Shown in pieces: positions 4,560-34,734 of a DNA stretch of 38,485 nt. Source of the stretch: a virus. The notes below the pieces were generated by a model. The model saw only the letters and a program-made list of their open reading frames with translations, was not told where the DNA came from and made no database searches. Within the stretch, counting starts at the first letter, position 1, and each line of letters starts with the position of its first letter. The stretch is from the IMG/VR virus record IMGVR_UViG_3300045988_113345, positions 1 through 38,485 of that record; one strand, given 5' to 3'. Both the position numbers and the translations under genes were made by a program.

Positions 4560-5228
4560 TTAAAACGGTACGTCACCCGTCATCGGAATCTCCTCAAAGT
4601 CGCTCAGGTCGCCAATGTTGGGAACGGCTGCTGGTTGCTGCTGCTGTGCTGCTGCGGCAAAGATACCACCGGATGCAAAGACGTTATTTCCTGTTTGCTT
4701 TGGTTTTCTCGGCTCTGGAATCTCAAAATCACCCGTACGAATCTTTGCGGGGTCGCAGAGAAATGCAGCCTCGGTAAAGTGATTGCCGTTATACTCTGCC
4801 TCACGGAACAGCACACCCACGGTACAACCTTTAAAAATGTCTGGGTCATATCCTGCCTCAATATTTGGCTCTGGTTTGCCGTTTGCCCGTGCGATGGTGT
4901 TGACCTGACCTTTATAGATTGCAACGCTCTGCATATACTTTTCATTGTCGCCCGTCATGACCGGCAGAAAGATTTTGTAGATGCCCTTCCATTTCTGCCC
5001 GTATTGACTGCCGGCATCGTCCAAATACCGCCGCTGGAAGTGTCCGGCATACTCACCCTCAGACACGTCAATCTGTAGCTTGATGTATAAGCTGCCGCCA
5101 CTGGTCTTGTCCACCTTAACATTAAGGATTTTGCAGACATAACCGCCTGCCGGAAGCTTGCCAAACTTGCTGCCAAATGTAGACTCCTGCACACCATTTG
5201 CACCTTGGATACCTGCTAATATTGCCAT
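4560..5228 (-). CDS. DUF669-like single-stranded-DNA-binding protein candidate
   Basis: 222 aa from ATG 5228 (GGAGG upstream). LPAGGYVCKILNVKVDKTSGG...IDVSEGEYAGH resembles DUF669. The acidic C-terminal tip DLSDFEEIPMTGDVPF resembles the SSB D-x-P-F tail. Confidence 0.65.
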   Translation of the reverse strand: MAILAGIQGANGVQESTFGSKFGKLPAGGYVCKILNVKVDKTSGGSLYIKLQIDVSEGEYAGHFQRRYLDDAGSQYGQKWKGIYKIFLPVMTGDNEKYMQSVAIYKGQVNTIARANGKPEPNIEAGYDPDIFKGCTVGVLFREAEYNGNHFTEAAFLCDPAKIRTGDFEIPEPRKPKQTGNNVFASGGIFAAAAQQQQPAAVPNIGDLSDFEEIPMTGDVPF

Positions 5229-5282
5229 AATAAATACCTCCATAATTTTTTATTTGATTTAGTTATGATACATACAGCCAAT

Positions 5283-5906
5283 TTACTCCAGCTGATAGTA
5301 CTCTCGGATAGCCTTGTCCACGGCTTTTAGGTCGTTGTCAATCTCCTCCGGGAACAGCTCCATAGGAGATTTTGCCGTGCTGTTGCCGTTGCTTTGCGTT
5401 TGGAAATAGTGCCGCCCCGCTGCATCTGCCTGACACAGCAGAACGATGGAAAACAGCCCCTCGACCGTCAACTTTTCATCTAGCATTTTCCCGATGGTCT
5501 TTGCTTTCAGCCGCCGATTTCCGGCAGCGTCATATGAGGTTTCTGTGTGATGCAAAAAGTACACAATGCAGTTGTCTGGCGTTTTAAACTGAATGAATCG
5601 GATGAGACTGTAAAAATTCAATGCCATGTTTGTAAACTTTTCGTAGCCTTTCTCGCTTGCATGGTTAAAAAACTCAAATGCAAGCAGATACTGACTGTCA
5701 TCAATCGCATACTTTGTCTTGTTGTGCTGTGCCAGTGTCCGGACAATCAGCGGATAATCTGCCGCATTGGCACATGGCAGCTTTTTGCGAAACGGGAGCG
5801 GCTTGCTGGCAACATTAAAAATACCAATCTCGCCCGGCTCAAAATTCCGGAGGCTGGTAGACTTGCCACTTCCAGATTCTCCGATGATTAAAACAGGGAT
5901 ACCCAT
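5283..5906 (-). CDS. Sak4-like AAA/RecA-fold ATPase (recombination/annealing module)
   Basis: 207 aa. Walker A IIGESGSGKST very close to the N-terminus. Sits between Gp157 and DUF669, as in Sak4 modules. SD AAAGGTGG 9 nt before ATG 5906. Confidence 0.7.
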   Translation of the reverse strand: MGIPVLIIGESGSGKSTSLRNFEPGEIGIFNVASKPLPFRKKLPCANAADYPLIVRTLAQHNKTKYAIDDSQYLLAFEFFNHASEKGYEKFTNMALNFYSLIRFIQFKTPDNCIVYFLHHTETSYDAAGNRRLKAKTIGKMLDEKLTVEGLFSIVLLCQADAAGRHYFQTQSNGNSTAKSPMELFPEEIDNDLKAVDKAIREYYQLE

Positions 5907-9757: not shown

Positions 9758-9826
9758 TGCTCACAAAAGCCTTGAAAAAATGAGTGTGTCCGGACAGCAC
9801 TAAAAAAATCGCCGGAGCAAAAAACG

Positions 9827-9858
9827 GAGCCGTAAAAAAATCTTACGGCTCTTTTTTT
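9827..9858 (+). terminator. Intrinsic terminator
   Basis: GAGCCGTAA / TTACGGCTC 9-bp stem, 7-nt loop, T7 tail. Confidence 0.8.
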
Positions 9859-9922
9859 GTTTGTAAAATTATACAAAACGTATCTTATTTTTTGTGCATC
9901 TATACAAATTGCGTAAAAGCGA

Positions 9923-9951
9923 TTGACATTATACGCAAACTGTGTTATTAT
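9923..9951 (+). promoter_or_regulatory. Promoter of the second XRE regulator
   Basis: TTGACA (9923-9928), 17-nt spacer ending in TGTGT, TATTAT (9946-9951). Confidence 0.65.
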
Positions 9952-9975
9952 AGGATACAGAGAGGAGGTGATATT

Positions 9976-10332
9976 ATGGCATGGTTTAATGCTCTCAAAT
10001 CACTAAGACGTGACACCGGTTACACCGCCATTGAAACAGCAAAAAAGCTGGGGCTGCCGTATACAACTTATGTCAGCTACGAGCAAGGCAAACGGGAACC
10101 AAGCATCAACTGCCTGATTAAACTTGCTAACTACTTTGATGTGCCTCTGGATACATTGCTTGACCGGAACGACGAGGTAAGCGGCGATGACGAAGAAGAA
10201 CCATCATTTTCAGAAATGTATGGTCGACTGTCGGCGGAAAAAAAACGCAAAATTGACAAATCGTTAAAAAGCCTCATGGAAATGTTTGATGGGCTAAAAG
10301 ACGAAGAAGAAGAAGAAGAAGAAGAAAACTAA
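9976..10332 (+). CDS. XRE-family HTH transcriptional regulator with poly-Glu tail
   Basis: 118 aa from ATG 9976 (SD GGAGGTGA). HTH AIETAKKLGLPYTTYVSYEQGKREPSINCLIKLANYFDVPLDTLL. C-terminus DEEEEEEEEN. Confidence 0.8.
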   Translation: MAWFNALKSLRRDTGYTAIETAKKLGLPYTTYVSYEQGKREPSINCLIKLANYFDVPLDTLLDRNDEVSGDDEEEPSFSEMYGRLSAEKKRKIDKSLKSLMEMFDGLKDEEEEEEEEN

Positions 10333-10501: not shown

Positions 10502-11338
10502 TTATGCAGCTTCCTGTCTGAATTCTACAGGAGATAGGCCATTCAGCTTAAGTTTGATGCGTTTGTTGTTGTACCATTCTATGTATTCATGAAGTTCTTC
10601 AATGAAATGCTCGACAGAATGAAATTCCTGCAAATAGAGAAGCTCTGTTTTCAGCAAGCCGAAGAAGTTCTCGGCACAGGCATTGTCAAGACAATTCCCC
10701 TTTCGGGACATACTCTGCCGGATGCCTTTCTCTTTCAGCATTTTCAGATAGTGCTTGTGTTGATACTGCCAGCCTTGGTCTGAATGAAGAATCAGATTTG
10801 TGTTGTCCGGTATTTTTGAAAATGCTTTCTCAAGCATATCCGTTACCTGATTCAAATTCGGATGACGGCTTAAATTGTATGAAATCACTTCGCCATTATA
10901 TAGATCAATGATTGGTGACAGATACAGCTTTATTCCAAACAAAGCAAATTCAGTAACATCCGTTACCCACTTCTGATTTGGCTGATCTGCTTTGAAATTC
11001 CGTTTCAGAAGATTTGGTGCGATTCTGCCGACATTACCCTTGTATGAGTGATACTTGTGCATACGAACACGGCAAAATATGCCCATTTTACGCATCAGTT
11101 TCTGTACAGTCTTGTGATTGATCACAAACTTCTTCTTCAATTCTTTTGTAATTCTCCGATATCCGTAACGCCCTTTGCTTTCCTCATAAATGCGGCGTAT
11201 TTCAGTTTTGATTTCAGCATATCGATCTGGCTTTGGATGATCAAATTGCTTGCTGTAATAGTAATAGGTACTGCGGGGAATATCGGCAATCTCAATGAGC
11301 AGTCCTATTTTATGTTCATGCCTCAGTTCCCATATCAC
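10502..11338 (-). CDS. IS3-family transposase OrfB (DDE/rve catalytic part), expressed as an OrfAB fusion
   Basis: 278-aa ORF in the -1 frame relative to orfA. That frame is open back to the slippery site at 11392. Typical IS3 features: IGLLIEI..., WVTDVTEF, LHSDQGWQY, NACAENFF, LNGLSPVEFR. Confidence 0.9.
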   Translation of the reverse strand: MIWELRHEHKIGLLIEIADIPRSTYYYYSKQFDHPKPDRYAEIKTEIRRIYEESKGRYGYRRITKELKKKFVINHKTVQKLMRKMGIFCRVRMHKYHSYKGNVGRIAPNLLKRNFKADQPNQKWVTDVTEFALFGIKLYLSPIIDLYNGEVISYNLSRHPNLNQVTDMLEKAFSKIPDNTNLILHSDQGWQYQHKHYLKMLKEKGIRQSMSRKGNCLDNACAENFFGLLKTELLYLQEFHSVEHFIEELHEYIEWYNNKRIKLKLNGLSPVEFRQEAA

Positions 11339-11754: not shown

Positions 11755-11776
11755 AACCTCTGAGGGGCTATTTTTT
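11755..11776. terminator. Right half of the IS-disrupted bidirectional terminator
   Basis: AAC (target duplication) + CTCTGAGGGGCT + A + TTTTTT. The rep stop codon is at 11775-11777. Confidence 0.7.
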
Positions 11777-12833
11777 AATATAGGTTGTATGCTGCAGGCT
11801 GGAAAGCATCGCGTTCGAGCATTTTTAAAAAATAAGCAAATCTGTTTTTTATAGGTTTGTTTTCCGCTGCAACATTAAGTGCAGCATATTTTTCACGGAG
11901 ATAAAATTGCTTACCATACAACTCGTTTTTTGTTAGCTTGTCTTTTGGTATGTCGATACGGACAAGTACACGGGCGATTTGCTCCATCTCAGCTTTGTTA
12001 AACTCATAATTGCACCCCTCGGCAAGCGTAGCAAGCCTCTCTGAGCCATAAGTGATTGTCCAGTCAATTCCATCTCGGTCTTCATAAAGCGGCTCTATGG
12101 GGCTGCCAGTGACGTTCTGGGGCGTTTTGAGTATAAATTGTATGCCGGATACTTTGCGACCACGCCGCAGGGCTACATAATCAAAATCAATGTCGGTTTT
12201 TTGGGATAACTCTTTTTGACACTTTTTTAATACCATGGTACTAAAACGCTTGTACTCACTGTATGTGTCCGCCGTGCAGCAGAGCATTTTTTTTAGTTCG
12301 CCAAGCGGTATCGTCCACGCCCCTCGAAAGCGGTTACTCTCTAAATACAAATACAAGATGTAACTGTATCTGGATGTTAAATTGACTACATTTTTAAGAC
12401 GGTATCTCAAATAGCCGATACTCTCAATATTAAAGATGTACTCCATCGCCTCTGGCGAGCATGCAAGTTTGATTGTCCAAAGCCCATCGTCCCCCTGCGT
12501 ACACTCAGCACACGAAAAAAGGGCTATTTTAGTAAATTTGTTTGGTTTGTCAGGGTCTTGGATAGTAACAACCTTAAAAAGGTTGTCAATCCGGTCAGAT
12601 AAATCCTTGTTTTTTATTTGCGTAACGCCCAGCAGCGACTCCAACTCACCCTTATCAAACGTCACACACCGCTCCTCTAGGTTGTGACTATTGATTTTTG
12701 ACAAGTACGCATCCAGTATTTTAAACTCTGCAAGCGTCATTTTAGTTTCGGATAGTGATTGCAGGGGGTTTGACTTTTGTACTAAAAAATTGCAATTGCC
12801 AGAAATTTGTGGTAGTGTTGTTCTTTTTGGCAT
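11775..12833 (-). CDS. Rep_3-type (RepB-like) theta-replication initiator protein
   Basis: 352 aa from ATG 12833 (SD GAGGTGA). Winged-helix pattern MTLAEFKILDAYLSKI..., LTSRYSYILYLYLESNRFRG..IPLGELKKML, YSEYKRFSTMVLKKCQKEL...DIDFDYVALRRGRKVSGIQFILK. Iterons lie immediately upstream. Confidence 0.85.
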   Translation of the reverse strand: MPKRTTLPQISGNCNFLVQKSNPLQSLSETKMTLAEFKILDAYLSKINSHNLEERCVTFDKGELESLLGVTQIKNKDLSDRIDNLFKVVTIQDPDKPNKFTKIALFSCAECTQGDDGLWTIKLACSPEAMEYIFNIESIGYLRYRLKNVVNLTSRYSYILYLYLESNRFRGAWTIPLGELKKMLCCTADTYSEYKRFSTMVLKKCQKELSQKTDIDFDYVALRRGRKVSGIQFILKTPQNVTGSPIEPLYEDRDGIDWTITYGSERLATLAEGCNYEFNKAEMEQIARVLVRIDIPKDKLTKNELYGKQFYLREKYAALNVAAENKPIKNRFAYFLKMLERDAFQPAAYNLY

Positions 12834-12851
12834 GATTATCACCTCATGCTT

Positions 12852-16265: not shown

Positions 16266-18725
16266 TTATCCCTCCTTTGTAAGACCCGATACTGTCCAAC
16301 CGTTTGTAACCAATGTTGCAACAGCATTATCGGATGCAGCCGTTCTTTTCATTCCGGTTGCTGTAAACGTACCTGATTTGACGCCACTTGCTGCAAAATT
16401 TATCAAATTTGCGTCCATATCGGCTGACGTGACAGCCGTTTTTGACACAGAAACTGTTTTTGGATATTTTGTCCCAGAGTAAACGCCTGTAATGCTTGAA
16501 CAGCCGTTTAAGTTGAGCACGCTTGCAATCTTACCACCTAAATCGGATAAATCTCCTGTAATGTTTGTGCAGCCGCCCAAACGCAGCGTGCTTGTAATTT
16601 TACCGCCTAAATCAGACAAATCCATCTTGTTTGTAGTATCGTTTATGATTGATAAGGCTGTAATACTGTCAAAATCCATGCAAATCAGCCCGTTATCTGA
16701 TTTTACATCAAACGTGCAGTTGCTCCCTTGTGCTTTCTGCCCGCCGTACTGCCACACAACATTTGTACCAGTTGCGGTTGCAGTAAATGTTCCTTTTCCA
16801 TGTCGGAATTGGATACTGCCTGACAGTGGCAAGACCTGCCGCCCATTTACAAATACCATGCCATTATTTGCATTCGTGTAAGGGAAATTACTTTCGTTAC
16901 TCTGTGTAATCCGAACCATACTATTTGCACCAGAATAAATGCCTTTTGTAGTACTATTGGTACAGCTGTAAATTTTTGCGTCACCTTGTCCGGTTACATA
17001 AACAGCATACTGTGCATTGCCTTTAAATTCCGTACCAGAACAGCAAATGTTCGATATATCAGAGACACCAACTGCATTTTTAGAGTTGGCATTCACCACA
17101 CAATCAGAAATCCGAACCGTTCCATTATACTGTGCAAGGATTGCGGTTGTGGATGTGTTTGCAGTATCGCTGTCGGTGTTGTCAATGGTGACTTTGGACA
17201 GATGCAAAAATCCATTTTCACAGACAAAATTCCCTTGAATGGTTGTTGTCGCTGCGGCATTGCCATAAATCCGAACATCTCGACCAAGCAGGGTTAATGT
17301 TTTGTTTGGAATAAGATAAGTTCCAGCCGCCAAATAGATTATGGCTTTTTTTGCGTATTGTGTAAACCGTAAAGCCATTCCGAGTGTTTGCAGGGCTTTT
17401 GCTGTGGTGCTGCCGTCTTGTGCGTCTGATCCAGCAGTAGCATTAACGTAAACTGCTTTAGTACTGCAAGTATCATCAAAGTTGGAATGTAGCACAGTCA
17501 ACTCACCAATGACATTTTGTAAAGATTGAATGTGCTGCAAGTCGGCTGGCGAAAGGCTGTTTAAAACTGCCATGTTGTTATGAGAATGATGTGTGTTTTT
17601 GATTACGTTCCACTTTGTAGCGTCAATATCGTCAAGTACGCTCTTGTTATCGTGCGTGTGTGCAGAGGCTTTCAGTGTATCCACATCCGGTGACAAATCT
17701 GGCACAAACAACCCGTCCGGCACAATATTCAGAGCGTTGTGAGATACCGTGCTGATGGACGGCAATACCTGCCATGTTTGCTTGCCATATACAGTTACCA
17801 GTTTTGCGGTGCAATACATTGCATGTGCACTGCCGTCCCATCCGGGTGTATAATCGCCCCACAGTGTAGCCTCTGCGTTTGTGCCGTTTTTGACGGTCGC
17901 TGTGGTTGTGCCGTTTTTGTCGGTGATTGTAATGGTTGCTCCAGCGTCCGTTTCGGTAACTGTAGCAATCGGGGAATAGCCGTTCATGCCGTCTTTTCCA
18001 TTGATTCCGTTTGCTCCATCCTTACCGTTTACGCCGTCTTTGCCAGGTGTTCCAGCGTCGCCTTTTTCACCTTTTTCGCCACGTTCTCCCTTTTCACCGG
18101 GTGCTCCAGGCTCGCCCTGGTCACCTTTTTCACCTTTTGCTCCAGGCTTTCCTTGCTTTCCAGGGTCACCTTTTTCCCCAGTTTCTCCCTTGTCGCCTTT
18201 ATCTCCCTTTGCAGGCTGCTCGGAATCCTGATAAGCACCCGTTGCAGCGTCGTACAACCACCACGTGCCGTTCTGGATAATCGGAGCTTTTGCGATCAGC
18301 TGCTCCGCCTGTGCAAGAATGGACTGCATCTCACGCAGGGCTTTGTCAATTGCATCAATACCGCCGTGGTACTGCTCCAAGATAGAGCCACGAACGATCA
18401 TTGGGGTCATTTCGTACTTGATAACGACAGTGTCATCCTTTTGACCGACAATTTCTGGCAGCAACTCACCGGACACCGCTGTAAAGTCCTCTGTAATCGT
18501 CCATGTTAAGATAATCTGGCTTTCCGTGACTTCTTTTTCCAGGTTCTGCATAACGAGACCACCGCCGCTGTTGACAGCTCGCAGCGTAAACAGGCAATCA
18601 GATAAATCAGTCTGATGGTAGTATCGGTCAACGGCAATCTGGATTTTATCGGCGTTTTTTTCGCCGGCAATGAGCAGATGCTTGATGTTTGCCGTGTCGA
18701 TGTATTTTTGATTTGCTGTTAGCAT
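16266..18725 (-). CDS. Tail fibre / receptor-binding protein: BppU-like N-terminus, collagen-like stalk, beta-helix, LRR-like C-terminal repeats
   Basis: 819 aa from ATG 18725 (SD AAGGGAGA). 25 G-X-Y triplets. A Thr/Asn/Gly-rich repetitive segment (…VRISDCVVNANSKNAVGVSD…AVYVTGQGDAKIYSC…). Two 23-aa DLSDLGGKI...GC..ITG units. Confidence 0.8.
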   Translation of the reverse strand: MLTANQKYIDTANIKHLLIAGEKNADKIQIAVDRYYHQTDLSDCLFTLRAVNSGGGLVMQNLEKEVTESQIILTWTITEDFTAVSGELLPEIVGQKDDTVVIKYEMTPMIVRGSILEQYHGGIDAIDKALREMQSILAQAEQLIAKAPIIQNGTWWLYDAATGAYQDSEQPAKGDKGDKGETGEKGDPGKQGKPGAKGEKGDQGEPGAPGEKGERGEKGEKGDAGTPGKDGVNGKDGANGINGKDGMNGYSPIATVTETDAGATITITDKNGTTTATVKNGTNAEATLWGDYTPGWDGSAHAMYCTAKLVTVYGKQTWQVLPSISTVSHNALNIVPDGLFVPDLSPDVDTLKASAHTHDNKSVLDDIDATKWNVIKNTHHSHNNMAVLNSLSPADLQHIQSLQNVIGELTVLHSNFDDTCSTKAVYVNATAGSDAQDGSTTAKALQTLGMALRFTQYAKKAIIYLAAGTYLIPNKTLTLLGRDVRIYGNAAATTTIQGNFVCENGFLHLSKVTIDNTDSDTANTSTTAILAQYNGTVRISDCVVNANSKNAVGVSDISNICCSGTEFKGNAQYAVYVTGQGDAKIYSCTNSTTKGIYSGANSMVRITQSNESNFPYTNANNGMVFVNGRQVLPLSGSIQFRHGKGTFTATATGTNVVWQYGGQKAQGSNCTFDVKSDNGLICMDFDSITALSIINDTTNKMDLSDLGGKITSTLRLGGCTNITGDLSDLGGKIASVLNLNGCSSITGVYSGTKYPKTVSVSKTAVTSADMDANLINFAASGVKSGTFTATGMKRTAASDNAVATLVTNGWTVSGLTKEG
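16485..16622. repeat. Tandem 69-bp duplication encoding two 23-aa LRR-like units
   Basis: DLSDLGGKITSTLRLGGCTNITG / DLSDLGGKIASVLNLNGCSSITG. The DNA copies are clearly alignable (…ACC(A/G)CCTAAATC(G/A)GA(T/C)AAATC). Confidence 0.8.
17979..18206. repeat. Collagen-like G-X-Y coding repeat (25 triplets)
   Basis: GDKGDKGETGEKGDPGKQGKPGAKGEKGDQGEPGAPGEKGERGEKGEKGDAGTPGKDGVNGKDGANGINGKDGMNG. Confidence 0.9.
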
Positions 18726-18738
18726 GGTATCATCTCCC

Positions 18739-20274
18739 TTACAAGTTATTGATAGCATCCCAGAGGGCATTGATTGCGTTTTTAAATTCTTCGTTTTCAA
18801 CTTTGTTATCTTCTAAATTTTGTATATCTGATACATTCTTGTCAGCATAATTCCAAGCTTCGTCTGCTTTCGCTAAAGCAATTTTTTTAGCACTTGCTGC
18901 CACAATGTCCGCATGGCGTTTGGATGCATTTTCGGAGTTGAATGCCAACGACCGCTTTGCGGCCTGTGCCAGCACTCTGGTGTCTTTCCCGGTGCAGGAA
19001 AACTCCCATCCGCCACGGAACTTCCAGGTCATGTTTGTAATGGTACTTTCTGCCCATTTCCCAGGCTGATATTCGATTTCAATTCGCTGCCCCAACTTAG
19101 GGAAGTGTCCCATGTCATCAAATTTCAGATAGCATTTTAGCTGAAACGGTTTCAGCAGCACATTGTGAAACAGATAATTTGCTGCTGCTTCCACAATCGG
19201 ATATTCGTTTTTGTCGTTTGCGTCCGGAAAGTCTTCTTGATAATTCAAAACCGTTTCCATTCTTCTTCCATCAAAAAAGCAATTGCTGGACAGGTCGATT
19301 TCTACATTTCCCAGCATTGGTTTGTATTTCCTCGCATTTGTCCATCCAGTATCATCATAGGTCTTAAAATAGACCTTTTGAATATAGATGTTATACGATG
19401 CCACATCACAGCTATCTCTTGCAATGGCAGAAAACGGGACACGGATTTTGTCTTTAAAAAAGCCAAATGGGACAAGAGAAAAAGGCACTTGTGAATCATT
19501 GTTCTGATACTGGTCATTTCGCATACAAACAAAGGAACAAGCCGGCTTTGCAAGGGCAGAGATATAATCAATAGCACTGTATCGGGTATTTCTGGATTCT
19601 CCTTCTTCTGATTTTCGCATCAGTGTATAACCGCTGTAGGAATTTCCGAGTTGGGGGTTATTGTTTGGAATGGAATCGATCGGTTCATAAGCGAGCGGTT
19701 TCTCCGCAATCATATTTTGCAGAATGTCATTCGTCCATGTGACAATATCCGTTACAATATCATGTAAAGGATAAACGCCGCCACCACCGCTTTCTCCCTC
19801 ATAACCTTCCAGCTTATCCCGCAGCTTTTTGGATACTTCGCTTTCATCGTCATCAACTTTTCCAGAACCGGACGAAATGGAATTGTTATTTAGCCATACC
19901 AAGGCATCCGATGCCCGAAGCGTGTACAGCGTTTTTTTACGGGATACAGATGTCACCCAGAACATTCCACGGAAAATCCAATCTGACGGCTTAGGCTCTT
20001 TTTGATAGCAGCTGTACAGAATGATTTTTGCACCATACAAGTTATATGCATTGATGCCGTCTTGCTCTAAGTGCAGCTGAATGGACAGTTCCGCCGGGCG
20101 GACGCTGCCAAGGGAAAAGGTGCTGCTGTCACAGGCAGAGGATTTGATGGAACAGCTATTCCGGATAATATCAGAATCGGTAAAAGCAATGTCCGTTGTA
20201 TATCCGGCATAATCGCCGTCATCCAGATAACAGGGAACGGAGAGAATGCCCTTTACATGCTCGTAAATCACCAT
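18739..20274 (-). CDS. Tail-associated protein (Tal / prophage tail endopeptidase-like baseplate hub)
   Basis: 511 aa, SD GGAGGAGGTG. Second gene after the tape measure, which is the conserved Dit-Tal position in siphoviruses. Confidence 0.65.
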   Translation of the reverse strand: MVIYEHVKGILSVPCYLDDGDYAGYTTDIAFTDSDIIRNSCSIKSSACDSSTFSLGSVRPAELSIQLHLEQDGINAYNLYGAKIILYSCYQKEPKPSDWIFRGMFWVTSVSRKKTLYTLRASDALVWLNNNSISSGSGKVDDDESEVSKKLRDKLEGYEGESGGGGVYPLHDIVTDIVTWTNDILQNMIAEKPLAYEPIDSIPNNNPQLGNSYSGYTLMRKSEEGESRNTRYSAIDYISALAKPACSFVCMRNDQYQNNDSQVPFSLVPFGFFKDKIRVPFSAIARDSCDVASYNIYIQKVYFKTYDDTGWTNARKYKPMLGNVEIDLSSNCFFDGRRMETVLNYQEDFPDANDKNEYPIVEAAANYLFHNVLLKPFQLKCYLKFDDMGHFPKLGQRIEIEYQPGKWAESTITNMTWKFRGGWEFSCTGKDTRVLAQAAKRSLAFNSENASKRHADIVAASAKKIALAKADEAWNYADKNVSDIQNLEDNKVENEEFKNAINALWDAINNL

Positions 20275-29328: not shown

Positions 29329-29793
29329 TTACTCTACAATGTGCCAGTCCTCTGCCAGCATATCGGTCTGACTTGCAAGCCAGCCTACAACAAGCTGTTT
29401 CTGTGCTGTATACATCGCTATACTATCAAGGACTTTTGGAGTATGCTCTGCAATTCCGTCACCGTAGCACTCAGTAATTGAATTGTGAATACACTTGCCA
29501 TTGATAAGAATGAGATGCATTCCTTTGCCGTTCCAGCCTTTTCGAGCCATTTTACAGCCAAGTTTAAGCAACTCAATAGCGTGACCAAAGTTCATTTCTC
29601 CTGACTTTTTATAAGCCGCTTCAAATGTAGCTTTTGGCGACCATGATTCATAGCCGTCTGAGTATCTTACAAGATATCCCTCGTCAGTAGGGTTCTCATC
29701 AGCAGGAATAGTCCAACCTCTGTACTTGTTGTAATCGCCTCTTGTCATAGGCTCTGCATCAATTCTCTTTGTGCCGATATAGCTTTCAAACAT
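29329..29793 (-). CDS. DUF2829 (Tad2-like) domain protein with extra N-terminal domain
   Basis: 154 aa from ATG 29793 (SD AAAGGAGAAAG). C-terminal MNFGHAIELLKLGCKMARKGWNGKGMHL...VVGWLASQTDMLAEDWHIVE matches the DUF2829 signature. The N-terminal 65 aa (…AEPMTRGDYNKYRGW…EGYLVRYSDGYESWSPKATFEAAY) form a separate small phage domain. Confidence 0.75.
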   Translation of the reverse strand: MFESYIGTKRIDAEPMTRGDYNKYRGWTIPADENPTDEGYLVRYSDGYESWSPKATFEAAYKKSGEMNFGHAIELLKLGCKMARKGWNGKGMHLILINGKCIHNSITECYGDGIAEHTPKVLDSIAMYTAQKQLVVGWLASQTDMLAEDWHIVE

Positions 29794-29817
29794 ATGTTCT
29801 TTCTCCTTTCGGACATG

Positions 29818-29840
29818 AAAAAAGCACCTCATTGAGATGC
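29818..29840 (-). terminator. Intrinsic terminator (copy 2 of the repeated terminator)
   Basis: Minus strand GCAUCUC-AAU-GAGGUGC + U6. Shares GCATCT.A...GGTGCTTTTTT with 29209-29234. Confidence 0.7.
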
Positions 29841-29855
29841 TTTAGTCAACTGTTT

Positions 29856-30176
29856 TTATGAAATAAATCCCTTTGCTTCTTTTATAATCTTTGCTGCTTT
29901 CTTCATTAAAGAATTTTCCTCCAGATATTCCAGCCCTTTTATTGTGATTGTTGTTTTTGGCAACACTGTAACGGATGGAAAATCTTCGTCAACATACGTT
30001 TTTATATAAAGATTTTCGATATATCCAGCTTTATGTAATTGAATCAGCAGTTTATTTCTTCTGTTTTCTGAGATTTTCAATCGTTCTGGAGAAATTGCGG
30101 TTTCATCGAAAGTGTCTGAATCCATAGCCGCTTCTAACGCTTTTAGTATCTTGTATATGATTGTAAAATTATTCAT
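29856..30176 (-). CDS. YjcQ-family protein (winged-helix)
   Basis: 106 aa, SD AAGGAG. IIYKILKALEAAMDS...LIQLHKAGYIENL...ITIKGLEYLEENSLMKKA matches the YjcQ pattern. AT-rich. Confidence 0.7.
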   Translation of the reverse strand: MNNFTIIYKILKALEAAMDSDTFDETAISPERLKISENRRNKLLIQLHKAGYIENLYIKTYVDEDFPSVTVLPKTTITIKGLEYLEENSLMKKAAKIIKEAKGFIS

Positions 30177-30191
30177 TTCTGCTCCTTTTTA

Positions 30192-30437
30192 TCAGCAAGC
30201 GTATGTGTATGTTTTTGGAAAATTATTTTCCTTTATGAATTTTTGAATCATGGTGATGGCATTACCTGTAGAAGAACAAAAACCATTTTGCCCACTGTTT
30301 TTGTAATAGTCAAAAATTGTATTTTTGACATTTTCTATTTCAGTAGTAATCTTTCCAATCATGATTTCATCATTTCTTCCGTACTCATAACACACGAAAC
30401 CATCTTTTATATACAAAAGTCTCATAAATGTCATCAT
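30192..30437 (-). CDS. Hypothetical 81-aa protein (immunity-protein candidate for the MuF C-terminal module)
   Basis: ORF starts 10 nt after the MuF stop. Very AT-rich. No motif recognised. Confidence 0.5.
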   Translation of the reverse strand: MMTFMRLLYIKDGFVCYEYGRNDEIMIGKITTEIENVKNTIFDYYKNSGQNGFCSSTGNAITMIQKFIKENNFPKTYTYAC

Positions 30438-30447
30438 TATTTATCAC

Positions 30448-32124
30448 TCATTTCAATTCATCATAATCCACAATCGCATCTATAGCCGATTGCCAGTCGT
30501 ATTTTAATTCTGAATATGCATGTGCTGTTTCATACGCACATCCAGTTTCTTTCATATACAGAAGTTCTCTTAATTCATGATTAAGCAATAAAATATCTGT
30601 TTCACGAATGTCGGTTCCATTTATTAACCGCTGCCATGCCAAAGCTTGGTCTATCGACGGGTCAAATTTCCGAATACTTCCATCTTTAAACAGATGCTCT
30701 TCAATCATCATATGTGATTTTATGCTTTTTATTTCATCATAGGTGAAATCCGTATTTTTCGTGATAAACTCTATATCTGAATCGTTTTCGCAACATTTTT
30801 TATAGAAATTTTTAGCTTGTTCATCGTATTCAAGAGTTTTCATGAAGTTTTTATCTGTAATTTTTCCACCTGCCTTTATTATACCATCCTTGCCGCCAGA
30901 AGTCAACCCACTTTTCTTTGCAGCATGCACTGCCTTTTGTGCCGTTGACCGATTGAATCCAAGAACCTGTTCCCGGAACCGGTCACGGTCTTGCCCGGTT
31001 TGTCTGCAAAAATCTTTCAGCTTCGCTTCATTGGCTTTCAGGTAGCGTGCTGACCGGTCAAATTCTGCTTGTGCTGTCGCTCTGGTCGCTTCATCTGTGG
31101 CACTGTTCACGCCTTCCTGTGCAGTGACACAACGCCGCTTCCAGGCACGCACTCTTCGTTCCTGTGCCCGCTGCATCTGGCTGATTTCGTATTCTGTGTA
31201 TTTCTCACCGTTCCATGCAATCCGCTTTTCGTCCAGCTGTTCCAATTCTTTTTTGGTATAGTTCGGCGTGGACAGCCCCGGAAAGTATGGATGCCAGTCA
31301 TGACGGCAGTTCCAGCCCCGAAAACCATCGCCGTCACCATAGCCAATACCACGCAGTGACCAGACTTTTAACCCGTCAATCGTCTTGCCTACATCCTTAC
31401 CTGTCAAACTTACAAGCTGCCCCTGCCACTTTGCATGCTCCGGTCTTGCACCGCTGTGGGCGGTGATCTCCATCAAATAGCAGTCGTTGTCCTCTGCGTT
31501 GGTCTTGCTGATCTCTGCTGCCGTCTGCCCGACACCTGTCAACGCCGCACGGCGGATTGCAACATCCAGCTTGTCAACGTGTCCGGATGGATATGTGACT
31601 GACAAGCCGCCCTTTGCAGCTTGTTTTAGTGTGCTGCGGATTGCCTCTTGATAGCTAAACGCCCCACTTGTAATCTGCATGTAGGCGTCATTGCAAGCCT
31701 GATAAAATGCACGCTGCGTGGTCAGTGCTGTAGTCTTTGTGAGATTATCCATCACGCCCATGGTCTTTTTAAAACCAGCCTCTAGCACCTGCCGCAGGCT
31801 GTCCGATTGCCGGATGTCAACCGTTGCAATACCGGCTTGCCTGTAAGCCTGATTGTCAATCTCTACAGCCGTCGTGCCTGCATCCTCAAATAACGCCCTA
31901 ACCTGTGCCGTGCATGCGTCTGTGCGTTGTGCAATCAGTTGTAAGATGTCCTCGTACAGCAAACCAGCCTCTTGTAACATCTCTGCTTGATGTTTGGTTG
32001 CCTCGGATACAAAGCCCATTCGCAGGATGCGTTTCACCATCGCTGACAAAATCGCATCTTCCAAGCGTGCGTATACTGCAAGTACAGCGTCCGTGCATGT
32101 CTCATAGTAAATTGGCGGCAGCAT
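30448..32124 (-). CDS. MuF/SPP1 gp7-like minor head protein fused to an unassigned ~150-aa C-terminal module
   Basis: 558 aa. MuF core ...TAHSGARPEHAKWQGQ...GWNCRHDWHPY. After a Gly/Lys linker (aa ~405-420) comes an AT-rich-encoded module ...FDPSIDQALAWQRLINGTDIRETDILLLNHELRELLYMKETGCAYETAHAY... Confidence 0.8.
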   Translation of the reverse strand: MLPPIYYETCTDAVLAVYARLEDAILSAMVKRILRMGFVSEATKHQAEMLQEAGLLYEDILQLIAQRTDACTAQVRALFEDAGTTAVEIDNQAYRQAGIATVDIRQSDSLRQVLEAGFKKTMGVMDNLTKTTALTTQRAFYQACNDAYMQITSGAFSYQEAIRSTLKQAAKGGLSVTYPSGHVDKLDVAIRRAALTGVGQTAAEISKTNAEDNDCYLMEITAHSGARPEHAKWQGQLVSLTGKDVGKTIDGLKVWSLRGIGYGDGDGFRGWNCRHDWHPYFPGLSTPNYTKKELEQLDEKRIAWNGEKYTEYEISQMQRAQERRVRAWKRRCVTAQEGVNSATDEATRATAQAEFDRSARYLKANEAKLKDFCRQTGQDRDRFREQVLGFNRSTAQKAVHAAKKSGLTSGGKDGIIKAGGKITDKNFMKTLEYDEQAKNFYKKCCENDSDIEFITKNTDFTYDEIKSIKSHMMIEEHLFKDGSIRKFDPSIDQALAWQRLINGTDIRETDILLLNHELRELLYMKETGCAYETAHAYSELKYDWQSAIDAIVDYDELK

Positions 32125-33494
32125 CAGCGGTCACCTACGCCAAACAGGCTGTAATCCTCAGGGCTGCCAGCCTCCGGAATCATCTTTTTTGCTTCTTCTT
32201 CCGAGCAGCCGTAATAGCTGCTCAGAAAAATTTCCGGTTTTAAGATGCCTGCTTGTACAAACTGCAACTCTCGCTGCGTCTTTGCATTTACGTCCTCCAG
32301 CACACTGTCACCCCAATCAAAAGCAATCTCAAACTCTGTTGACGGGATAACACCATGATAAAACGCCAGCGTTGCTGCTGCTGTAATCGCTCGCCGCAGG
32401 GCGAATTCCGTCTGCTTTTGCAAGGCAGACACAAATACATAGCTGCGTTGTTTGGACGATTCAATCTCTGTTGCTGTTTTTGCGACCTCTGCAGGCTCTG
32501 ACAACGTACCATAGGCAAGTTGACAAGAAAACTCAATTCGCTGCAAAATCTTATTTAAGCCGTTAAAAAATGATGCATCCCGAATCTCCGGCGAATACGG
32601 CATGATTTTGTCAGAATCATCATCCCCGATGGACAGCATCTTTTTGTATAGCCGCTTATCATGTGCGGAAAGCCGGTCAAATCTGTTGAAAATGTCCTGT
32701 GTCGCAAAGACTGCGGTTTCTTTTGATTCGTATTCCCACAAAATTTCCGACCATAATTGATCCGCCTGAACAATCTGCGGCAGTGCATCCGCAAACACGG
32801 ACACGCCCAAAGCAGAGGTCGGGTCTTTGCTGTTGGGCTTTGGCACACGGAAAAAACCGAACAGCGGCGTTTCTGACTGCACGTTGACCAGCGGCTCTAA
32901 TCCAGCCCACGGCGTTTCTGACAACTCGCAAGGGCTGCCCAACGTGTCTGCATCGTATGCGTGGTAGGTGTAATTTTGGATAATACACTGCTTTTTGTCA
33001 CTGTCATATCCGTGGCACTCAAGCCTTGTGTACCAGTCTGCACCGCTCCGAAACGTATCTGCAAACACGGCGGATTGCATAGACTGGTCAGATGTAAACG
33101 CAATCGGAAACACACGCTGCACTGGCACCCACTCCAACGATACACCGCCGTTTGCAAAATATGGCTTTATCACCATACCACCGCTTGCAAGCCCTGCAGA
33201 AAAGCCAGTTTGCAACGCTGGCAGGTGATTGTCTATCATGGCTTGCAAATAGTTTGCCGTCTTGCTATTTCCAGAAATTTCAATTTTTGACTCTGCAAAA
33301 ATCAACCGTGTAAACTCGGTACAGATTGCTGCTGCAAGATGTAAGCCGTCTTTTTGCTCTCTGCTCTCTGAATTGCCGGAAAACAGCGTTTCCCACTGTT
33401 CAATGCATCCCCTCATTAGTGGAGATATTGCTGTTTTGATATTAAGCGCCGCCTCAATATCTGCATAATTGATTATAAAATCACCCCCAATCAT
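32124..33494 (-). CDS. Portal protein (SPP1 gp6-like)
   Basis: 456 aa from ATG 33494 (the track ORF extends to 33650 inside terL). Lies between TerL and MuF. Confidence 0.85.
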   Translation of the reverse strand: MIGGDFIINYADIEAALNIKTAISPLMRGCIEQWETLFSGNSESREQKDGLHLAAAICTEFTRLIFAESKIEISGNSKTANYLQAMIDNHLPALQTGFSAGLASGGMVIKPYFANGGVSLEWVPVQRVFPIAFTSDQSMQSAVFADTFRSGADWYTRLECHGYDSDKKQCIIQNYTYHAYDADTLGSPCELSETPWAGLEPLVNVQSETPLFGFFRVPKPNSKDPTSALGVSVFADALPQIVQADQLWSEILWEYESKETAVFATQDIFNRFDRLSAHDKRLYKKMLSIGDDDSDKIMPYSPEIRDASFFNGLNKILQRIEFSCQLAYGTLSEPAEVAKTATEIESSKQRSYVFVSALQKQTEFALRRAITAAATLAFYHGVIPSTEFEIAFDWGDSVLEDVNAKTQRELQFVQAGILKPEIFLSSYYGCSEEEAKKMIPEAGSPEDYSLFGVGDR

Positions 33495-34734
33495 CTGTTT
33501 TCCATCCCAAGTGTCGCAGGATGGTATAGCAAAAATACCGGATGTCGTCCATCGCATGATCATTTTCCTTGATAACGGTATCTTGCTGCTTTTTGTCGTC
33601 CCATCGATACAAGCCAAATTCCCGAATGGTGTCCGTGCAAGTATCTGCAATCAGAATCCGCTTTTGTTTCAGCAGGGTCATCGTGTATCGGATGCCGTCA
33701 ATCACGCTGTTATTTGCTTTGCGGACGCTGTAGGCAGCGTGGTGCTGGATACAAGCAATCAAACTTGCGGCAGACGGGTCTACTACAATCTGCTGGATGT
33801 CGTAGCCCTCTGCAAGCCTTGCAATCTCCTGATAATGCTGCTCGTCATCCTTTTGCTTGCCTGCTTTGCGTGCATCATAATAGGATTCTTTAAGTCTCAC
33901 TGCAAAATCATCCTCGACCGCCCACAGCCCGATAGACGTAGGGTTTAGCGTGCCGTAGTCAATAGACAAGTAAAAAACCGCCCTCTCGGACGGTTTATAA
34001 TCATGAACAACGCTAACAGCTGGGTCAAAATTCGGATAGACAAGCCCCTCTGCCACTCGCCACAACCCTAATACATAGCGGTCGTAAAACGCCCCAGCAG
34101 GGTATACAGACGCTGCACGCTGGATTTTTTGTGGTGTCATGATGGGGTTATCCTGCATCGTGAAATGCAGATGCAAAACATCGTTACGCTCGCCATTGTC
34201 CGCCTTTAAAATCCATTGCTGATAAAACCAGTGCTGCGGATTGTCCGGATTGCAGTTAAACCACAACCTTGCATCTCCAACAGACAGCGTTCGGGCAATT
34301 GCCTGATTGACAAACGACTCCGGCATTAAGGCAACCTCATCTAAAAGGACGCCACTCAGCGTGATGCCCTGAACAAGCTTATAAGACGCCTCATCCTTAC
34401 CGCCGAAAACGTGAAATTGGTTTTGCTTGCCGTTGCCTTTGACGGTTAAGATGTGCTTACTGCCACCGATATAGGACACGTTAAAATAATGCGTGATGTC
34501 TGCCATCTGCAACAGCTCCATGATGATGTTACGCTCTGCAGATTGTACCGTGTTGCCGCAGATGCCAAACCGTGCACGGTCAAATGTTGCCATTGCCCAC
34601 AGGATAAACGCACATGCCATGGATGCCGTCTTGCCAGACCGCACAGAACCGTCGCAAATTAAGGCGTATGCATCCGGCTTGTATGCCCATCGAAAGACGG
34701 TTTTTTGCTTTTTGGATAGCTTTGTAAACGTCAT
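33481..34734 (-). CDS. terL: Terminase large subunit
   Basis: 417 aa. Walker A-like DGSVRSGKT near the N-terminus, Walker B-like LSGVLLDEV, C-terminal nuclease-type acidic motifs (HAMDDIRY). ATGA overlap with the upstream gene. Confidence 0.9.
   Translation of the reverse strand: MTFTKLSKKQKTVFRWAYKPDAYALICDGSVRSGKTASMACAFILWAMATFDRARFGICGNTVQSAERNIIMELLQMADITHYFNVSYIGGSKHILTVKGNGKQNQFHVFGGKDEASYKLVQGITLSGVLLDEVALMPESFVNQAIARTLSVGDARLWFNCNPDNPQHWFYQQWILKADNGERNDVLHLHFTMQDNPIMTPQKIQRAASVYPAGAFYDRYVLGLWRVAEGLVYPNFDPAVSVVHDYKPSERAVFYLSIDYGTLNPTSIGLWAVEDDFAVRLKESYYDARKAGKQKDDEQHYQEIARLAEGYDIQQIVVDPSAASLIACIQHHAAYSVRKANNSVIDGIRYTMTLLKQKRILIADTCTDTIREFGLYRWDDKKQQDTVIKENDHAMDDIRYFCYTILRHLGWKTDDWG

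Follow-up and report, generated by a model that had tools for sequence, protein, structure and literature searches.

A probable mobile toxin/immunity-type cassette grafted onto the 3' end of a head-protein gene in a phage of gut Ruminococcus

MuF toxins are abundant in gut phages. To our knowledge, only (p)ppApp synthesis and ADP-ribosylation have been characterized as activities among them, and their biological role is not yet known. Polymorphic toxin systems of this kind are already known from the work of Zhang in 2012 and Jamet in 2017. Here, we describe an AT-rich island that begins within the MuF-type head-protein gene of IMG/VR virus record IMGVR_UViG_3300045988_113345, a phage of gut Ruminococcus; the whole stretch that was analyzed, 38,485 nucleotides (nt), is referred to as the window. 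The island measures 1,057 base pairs (bp) and consists of the C-terminal module of the head protein, an 81-amino acid (aa) open reading frame (ORF), and a YjcQ-family gene, all on the minus strand. The closest described systems are the MuF toxins Apk2, which are (p)ppApp synthetases, and Bxa, an ADP-ribosyltransferase (ART), both neutralized by adjacent immunity proteins (PMC11699363). Like the MuF polymorphic toxins of temperate Firmicutes/Bacteroidota phages (Jamet et al. 2017), the protein studied here has an N-terminal domain of the MuF superfamily, is encoded next to the portal gene, and belongs to a phage of gut Firmicutes, and it likewise ends in a variable C-terminal domain that is common to other polymorphic-toxin scaffolds and is followed immediately by a small ORF. 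Unlike the known MuF toxins, its module lies outside the listed MuF toxin families and outside Pfam, and the partner belongs to a new family of about 81 aa.

Taken as a whole, the island is probably a toxin/immunity-type cassette of the MuF class that is mobile and has become joined to a MuF2 head-protein gene at its 3' end; in it, the module would be a metal-dependent toxin, the 81-aa product its inhibitor, and a promoter in the junction codons the means of expressing immunity. The junction, the module of about 140 aa, and the 81-aa gene move as a unit among unrelated scaffolds, which comprise three MuF families, Rhs, and stand-alone copies. These comparative data largely support the original prediction, made from the letters of the window, of a horizontally swapped, effector-like module with a cognate partner. 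As in the Rhs and contact-dependent inhibition (CDI) systems (CdiA-CT/CdiI), a C-terminal toxin and its immunity gene would here be mobile as a cassette, with a conserved junction motif at the boundary; unlike in those systems, the delivery scaffold is a phage head protein.

Movement of the cassette is evident from a second viral contig (L007), which is about 100% identical in nucleotide sequence to window positions 29820-30960, with one mismatch, across the module, the 81-aa ORF, and the YjcQ gene. Identity is 93-97% from 30960 to about 31200, and across the MuF core it is down to 55-75% (72% for the protein). The downstream limit of the block that is 100% identical is a terminator-like hairpin, beyond which no similarity between L007 and the window was found and the following genes differ. 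The cassette has thus been exchanged recently between two divergent Ruminococcus phages. Close modules (55-78% identical) ride on MuF2, MuF1, and VG15-like scaffolds, and a displaced copy is seen in L011 (2757-6244), where the gene order is portal, a MuF1 gene with a different C terminus (HECGH motif, no Pfam match), a 330-aa ORF, and an orphan module with its partner, 1.1 kb downstream of MuF1. A 182-nt direct repeat of the 3' end of this MuF1 gene (92% identical) precedes the orphan and stops at the junction, just as a copy of the main gene's 3' end stands at the start of displaced orphan cassettes in Rhs/CDI loci. Together, the L007 and L011 loci bear out the horizontal swapping proposed at the outset. 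In the intervening 330-aa ORF of L011, a 15-nt unit is repeated five times in tandem, (EKAER)n, at 5221-5310.

Related cassettes are also present in contigs of Ruminococcus metagenome-assembled genomes (MAGs). Two-gene cassettes of module and partner occur in the chromosomes of cellulolytic Ruminococcus (L001, 8001-8870; L006, 7650-8462) with no phage genes nearby, their neighbors being housekeeping and cellulosome genes (dockerin, GH9, CBM3). The GC content of these two is 0.32, compared with 0.38-0.43 in their flanks, and each has the junction promoter-like element and a terminator-like hairpin of its own. The L005 cassette retains a 5'-truncated MuF1 remnant.

The 81-aa gene is the constant companion of the module. 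A homologue (46-100% identical) begins 10-18 nt after the module stop codon in 17 of 17 close loci, which represent about 11 independent ones drawn from IMG/VR viral contigs, Ruminococcus MAGs, and metagenome contigs; no other gene recurs downstream of the cassette in these loci. Distances between modules track those between their partners (Mantel r = 0.91, p = 2e-4), as linkage alone would also bring about. The partner family is narrow, with 54 clusters, nearly all 81 aa long and named only in Ruminococcus. Five genes for distant modules, those of the Rhs protein P0117, a 2,596-aa protein (P0137), the MuF2 protein P0029, P0034, and P0096 (at L018, L019, L020, L021, and L023), were also examined, and an ORF of 78-102 aa follows each of the five at 1-11 nt. 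In L018, L019, L020, and L021, these ORFs score 7.4-11.8 bits with the profile of the 81-aa family, come next after the true family when 378 small ORFs are ranked, and are equaled by 0-5 of 2,000 shuffles, and all five share a C-terminal signature, [FY]-P-x4-[YFI]-[AC]-x-stop. An AlphaFold2 model of the 81-aa protein reached a predicted local distance difference test (pLDDT) score of 95.5 with a beta4-alpha-beta arrangement; its best Foldseek match in the PDB had E 0.32, and no immunity fold could be assigned. The 10-nt gap between the MuF stop codon and the start of the ORF, noted from the sequence, was confirmed, and the proposal that the ORF encodes a cognate partner is supported by the adjacency in the close loci, the Mantel correlation, and the weakly similar ORFs that follow the five distant members.

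Who carries the module bears directly on what it may be. The scaffold of the window protein matches Phage_min_cap2 and, in addition, phrog_581 ("minor head protein", E 4.8e-104); PF06152 is the branch of the MuF superfamily termed MuF2 by Jamet et al. (PMC5576092). The original description as a MuF head protein therefore stands for superfamily membership and the position next to the portal gene, with the correction that the scaffold is Phage_min_cap2 (MuF2) and not Phage_Mu_F itself, which is the MuF1 family PF04233. The Gly/Lys linker, GLTSGGKDGIIKAGGK, occupies aa 406-421, and both it and the H-E-x-x-E motif were found as first described. A profile search of 1.84 billion representatives (clusters at 50% identity) returned 1,766 representatives of the module family at E <= 1e-3 and 1,260 at E <= 1e-10. 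The module ends no more than 15 aa from the protein C terminus in 154 of 165 domain occurrences. Among 129 full-length members scanned for N-terminal domains, Phage_Mu_F was found in 31, Phage_min_cap2 in 23, VG15 in 12, and WXG100 in one. P0117 carries Rhs repeats and ends in the module (aa 1635-1764), a genuine Rhs C terminus as in Rhs systems. The 3,678-aa protein P0043 (L022, 4001-15037), encoded in an actinobacterial ESX locus, combines WXG100_2, a Gln_amidase toxin domain, and two copies of the module, whereas P0025 (5,865 aa) has four copies and P0042 (6,656 aa) three; these giant proteins are GC-rich. That the same domain terminates MuF1, MuF2, and VG15-type proteins and an Rhs protein, and is found on WXG100/ESX proteins as well, supports the view of a polymorphic-toxin-like module. 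In some module copies of the giant proteins, RHELxE has degenerated to RDALAE. The neighbors of the P0043 gene are EccB, two WXG100 genes, and mycosin, followed by five paralogous genes of about 200 aa on the opposite strand.

Alignment of 44 diverse members revealed nine invariant or nearly invariant residues (H471, F487, W497, R499, D510, H516, E517, E520, and H535), with D510, H516, E517, E520, and H535 fully invariant, a pattern that suggests a metal-dependent enzyme. Neither alone nor as a profile did the module match any sequence in Pfam, NCBIfam, PADLOC, or the PDB, and a search of PHROG gave no functional family. A Pfam search of the 44 members was negative, and in the 129 full-length members the Pfam matches were only to scaffold or unrelated accessory domains and to no known toxin-domain family. 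The AlphaFold2 model (pLDDT 84, predicted TM score 0.80) consists of helices and a hairpin, and Foldseek searches of the PDB and BFVD gave best E values of 1.8 and 0.36, respectively, which are not meaningful; the recurrent ACE and SAMHD1 rows in the output reflect redundancy in the PDB. Our literature search for HExxE in the context of toxins and immunity proteins found no papers. These profile, sequence, and structure searches uphold the initial observation that the motif is H-E-x-x-E instead of the canonical HExxH and that no family can be assigned.

The module resembles the zincin-like Tox-MPTase1-5 domains in its small size, C-terminal location, H-E-x-x-[H/E] helix, and downstream His, and a domain scoring as Tox-MPTase5, with HEELE and not HEELH, stands behind the same junction in related phages. 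It differs from HExxH zincins in having Glu at the second ligand position, in lacking a Foldseek zincin match at E < 1, and in an hhalign E value of 0.17 against a Tox-MPTase5-type sequence. A resemblance to zincins in mechanism is conceivable. Kinship with Tox-MPTase5 itself was dropped, the hhalign match covering just 16 columns, as was identity with Ntox28 (all-alpha, [DN]HxxE), from which the module differs in motif spacing and for which Pfam gave no match.

Base composition sets the island apart from everything else in the window. The MuF core has a GC content of 0.523 and a GC content at third codon positions (GC3) of 0.542, as opposed to 0.344 and 0.297 in the module (Fisher p = 4.6e-11 for GC and 1.7e-7 for GC3), and the break is abrupt at aa 420/421, where the GC content of 30-codon blocks changes from 0.49 to 0.26. 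The 81-aa ORF (0.297) and the YjcQ gene (0.318) continue the trend, giving the island a GC content of 0.324 against a window mean of 0.455 (standard deviation 0.040) and a Fisher p of 1.2e-18 against the remaining window. Only 0.3% of equal-length windows are as AT-rich, every one of them overlapping the island, which is thus the lowest-GC stretch of its length in the window. In the 17 related loci, the cassette has a GC content of 0.28-0.35 and the flanks 0.38-0.50. The AT-rich shift that had been noticed by eye in the module and the next two genes is therefore confirmed quantitatively, both for module against core and for island against window.

These carriers and this composition also bear on whether the module simply serves the structure or assembly of the head, engaged in decoration, scaffolding, or portal interaction, with the 81-aa protein as an assembly chaperone and the AT-richness a product of amino-acid composition. 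The gene lies between the portal and scaffold genes, and the phrog_581 alignment reaches aa 465, as such a role would allow. The distribution of the module across Rhs proteins, WXG100/ESX proteins, and chromosomal loci outside phages, however, already largely refutes it. Close MuF2 relatives differ at the C terminus, with the junction preceding many unrelated domains that include known toxins (see below), GC3 falls along with GC, and the His/Glu/Asp residues are invariant. We regard a structural role as scarcely credible.

The junction itself may have a second layer. Unlike the VENN or PxxxxDPxGL of Rhs/CDI systems, it has the form [VIL]DK/LT...SG-I-I-x-[TS]-G-G-K and reads as a sigma-A promoter in DNA. 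We infer from the sequence that the junction codons double as a sigma-A-type promoter (TTGACA-16/17-TGnTATAAT). The site in the window has 11 of 12 consensus matches and an extended -10 (TGg). This element recurs at the same position in 13 junctions, six of them with a perfect TTGACA-16/17-TGnTATAAT, and of 19 sites with at least 11 of 12 matches plus TG in 408 kb (both strands), nine are at junctions. The -35 box is kept although the codon frame across it differs between junctions, giving L-T-x where the spacer is 17 nt long and V/I-D-x where it is 16 nt, and although the residues encoded by the spacer vary; this argues for selection on the DNA and not on the peptide. At the junctions of the Rhs protein (L018), the giant protein (L019), L021, and L023, no promoter was found, the best sites having at most 9 of 12 matches and no TG. 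In Vibrio cholerae, promoters of type VI secretion immunity genes have been shown experimentally to lie inside effector genes (vasX/tsiV2, tseL/tsiV1, and vgrG-3/tsiV3; PMC3857813), and a promoter inside the toxin ORF would here likewise express the downstream immunity gene apart from the main operon. Unlike those of V. cholerae, the promoter here is predicted from sequence, falls precisely on the domain junction, and has been conserved in cassettes whose toxins differ. The combination of a junction-embedded promoter and a closing terminator is not described for MuF toxins in PMC5576092 or PMC11699363.

Conservation of the junction extends well beyond this module. The exact 17-mer GGTGARAGTGGTATAAT is found in 31 IMG/VR contigs (L024-L054), and about 26 of the 31 matches mark a junction in frame and have one of the hexamers TTGACA, TTGCAA, and TTGAAA 16 nt ahead of them. 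In MuF-size proteins, it precedes at least eight unrelated C-terminal types, including Gln_amidase (E 3e-13), the domain scoring as Tox-MPTase5, an HEYRH type, an ART-like type, a JAB-like HNHPRNSSYSLND domain, the present module, and others. The occurrence of the 17-mer before so many C-terminal types, together with the absence of any -35 box at its four out-of-context matches, indicates that the junction is a general boundary of MuF-toxin cassettes in these phages. Related MuF proteins thus vary at the C terminus as the original prediction supposed, and uniform conservation within one lineage is contradicted. Some short or orphan forms (P0004, P0007, L028, L046, and L053) have the motif (N)HDxxGRF(T/C)SG just upstream of the junction.

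At its other end, the island is closed by an intrinsic-terminator-like hairpin, whose stretch is also read as ...ggtgcttttttcat. Equivalent hairpins come right after the partner gene in L001, L005, L006, L008, L013, L015, and L018, and after the YjcQ gene in the window. Because the promoter-like site and the hairpin bracket the island, it looks like a moron-type transcription unit. Like Hendrix-type phage morons, it is an accessory block of deviant GC content lying in the late region between a promoter-like site and a terminator-like hairpin; unlike morons, its promoter and first part lie in frame within an essential structural gene and not between genes. The YjcQ gene follows the cassette only in the window and L007, and its absence from the other cassette loci marks it as a passenger and not a conserved component. 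Its original placement in the AT-rich island holds for its low GC content, while membership of the conserved unit does not; a role as a second immunity protein was rejected on the same distribution.

A moron-like layout would also be expected if the cassette were a toxin-antitoxin or abortive-infection moron expressed in lysogens, with the promoter driving a free module and an 81-aa antitoxin and the fusion to MuF incidental. The bracketing signals, the two-gene stand-alone copies in Ruminococcus chromosomes, and the low GC content typical of morons all fit. Against this, no start codon is conserved after the promoter (Met428 of the window is missing in L001, L005, L006, and L008), nor is a ribosome-binding site; the module is accordingly not expected as a free protein, and an internal start for a stand-alone module was rejected. 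Moreover, in the great majority of its occurrences (the 154 of 165 above) the module forms the C terminus of a larger delivery protein, in frame with it, and the stand-alone ORFs still carry pieces of the MuF linker or core ahead of the promoter, as displaced orphans would. We therefore judge a lysogen-expressed moron highly improbable.

For the toxin/immunity-type cassette that we favor, the following course of events may be envisaged. The MuF part would target the fusion to the capsid, and a few copies would enter the cell with the DNA. There, the module would act as a metal-dependent hydrolase, possibly a zincin-like HExxE variant, and damage a bacterial target, its invariant residues being D510, H516, E517, E520, and H535, plus H471 and R499. 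The beta-rich 81-aa protein would bind and neutralize it. The junction promoter and the terminator would form a moron-like unit from which the partner gene could be transcribed apart from the late operon, such as in lysogens or right after DNA entry, with YjcQ as a passenger inside the transcription unit in the window phage. Toxicity, neutralization, and the packaging and ejection of the fusion are proposed here by analogy with Apk2 and Bxa (PMC11699363).

Several observations weigh against this interpretation. The distant small ORFs resemble the 81-aa family weakly (four at 7-12 bits, with an hhalign probability of 3% for that of L018), the ORF downstream in L023 scores 2.9 bits only, and the 81-aa gene of the window is preceded by a weak ribosome-binding site. 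The promoter-bearing loci are homologous, so the positional statistics overstate their independence, and the promoter motif partly coincides with the conserved peptide G-I-I. The sole pointer to a hydrolase is the conserved His/Glu/Asp pattern, in a domain of no recognizable fold or family. Finally, the two to four internal module copies in actinobacterial giants are unusual for a terminal toxin and could mean an adaptor or processing role.

The surroundings of the island introduce a further alternative. Directly after the island terminator lies a gene for a 167-aa protein with a C-terminal Tad2-like domain. Tad2 is a family of Thoeris anti-defense proteins. Tad2 homologues are also found a few kb 3' of the cassette in L010 and L017, making the gap between MuF and the scaffold gene an accessory or anti-defense hotspot. 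The module might be an injected effector of host takeover or anti-defense, of the kind called polyvalent proteins, acting transiently in the new host, with the 81-aa protein serving as an inhibitor or chaperone in the producer cell until packaging. Besides the hotspot, this possibility draws on the proposal that MuF fusions carry early injected effectors (PMC5512222), on the several module copies in giant multi-domain proteins, and on the embedded promoter, which could render the inhibitor an early gene. The module is found, however, at an Rhs end, on ESX/WXG100 substrates, and at polymorphic-toxin loci that also contain EndoU cassettes, all contexts of interbacterial delivery; pairs of module and partner sit in chromosomes with no phage nearby; and no match to a PADLOC or anti-defense family was obtained. 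On balance, we consider a takeover effector improbable.

A bolder version of the toxin/immunity-type reading, which we offer as a speculation with more against it than for it, is that the MuF-toxin junction is a dual-coding element, its peptide ([VIL]-D-K or L-T)...S-G-I-I-x-[TS]-G-G-K being for the most part the shadow of a sigma-A promoter that would mark the swap boundary and supply an immediate-early or constitutive antidote, and that the module represents a new HExxE metal-enzyme fold of phages, Rhs, and type VII secretion. If so, the virion would bring the toxin in protein form and its antidote in the form of DNA: cells that admit the genome or hold the prophage would be rescued, cells that destroy the incoming DNA would be left with un-neutralized toxin, and the junction would serve as the homologous-recombination boundary for toxin/immunity swaps.

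Although the type of system is known, the literature and databases that we searched gave no description of the module family, the partner family, or a dual-coding junction promoter. The locus would define a third family of the MuF toxin type, one that is large and widespread, extending over phage MuF1, MuF2, and VG15 proteins, Rhs, and actinobacterial ESX substrates. Its D/HExxE/H signature and the models of module and partner make it directly testable, and the junction promoter suggests a route by which an immunity gene buried in a late operon could be expressed in lysogens or early infection. The junction 17-mer also provides a sequence handle for cataloguing MuF toxin cassettes in metagenomes.

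Table 1 Features of the window referred to in the text
Feature	Position	Strand	Details
Terminase	33481-34734		Head-module gene
Portal-position ORF	32124-33650		Head-module gene
MuF-type scaffold domain	31006-32115	(-)	aa 4-373 of the 558-aa protein (ORF 30448-32124); Pfam Phage_min_cap2 (PF06152), E 3.6e-97
Coiled tail and Gly/Lys linker	30874-31005	(-)	aa 374-417; contains the junction; joins scaffold to module
Promoter-like site in junction codons	30878-30906	(-)	-35 TTGACT at 30906-30901 (codons L407-T408), 17-nt spacer, TGn, -10 TATAAT at 30883-30878 (codons G414-I415-I416)
C-terminal module	30451-30870	(-)	aa 419-558, ~140 aa; uncharacterized domain family; GC 0.34
H-E-L-R-E motif	30565-30579	(-)	aa 516-520; putative metal/catalytic site; H/E/E invariant across superfamily
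81-aa partner gene	30192-30437	(-)	Putative immunity protein
YjcQ-family gene	29856-30176	(-)	PF09639, E 1.1e-24; same AT-rich block and transcription unit
Intrinsic-terminator-like hairpin with T-run	29814-29843	(-)	10-bp stem, then TTTTCATG...; closes the island
Gene with Tad2-like/DUF2829 domain	29329-29832	(-)	Domain C-terminal in 167-aa protein; PF11195, E 5.6e-23; phrog_872
Gene with collagen triple-helix repeats	16266-18800	(-)	844-aa tail-region protein; PF01391, E 5.5e-16
Plasmid-type Rep3 initiator	11775-12842	(-)	Rep3_N + Rep3_C
IS3-family rve transposase	10502-11338	(-)	
Helix-turn-helix repressor-like gene	9784-10332	(+)	Divergent orientation

The window as a whole is a near-complete siphovirus-type genome that is transcribed mostly from the minus strand. 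Its head-module genes run in the order terminase, portal-position ORF, MuF, scaffold, and major capsid protein, with MuF directly downstream of the portal gene; the portal of the window is assigned by position, and its equivalents in L011 and L020 are SPP1_portal. Other genes encode a tape measure protein, a collagen-like fiber, a holin, an M15+GH25 endolysin, and a primase-helicase. Rfam and tRNA scans of the window gave no matches, and blastn of the region against GenBank phages returned only short DUF2829 matches. Among the window ORFs scanned, there was no integrase and instead a Rep3 initiator of plasmid type; the phage is possibly temperate and may be maintained as a phage-plasmid. Also present are an IS3-family transposase gene, a repressor-like gene in divergent orientation, and collagen triple-helix repeats in a protein of the tail region.

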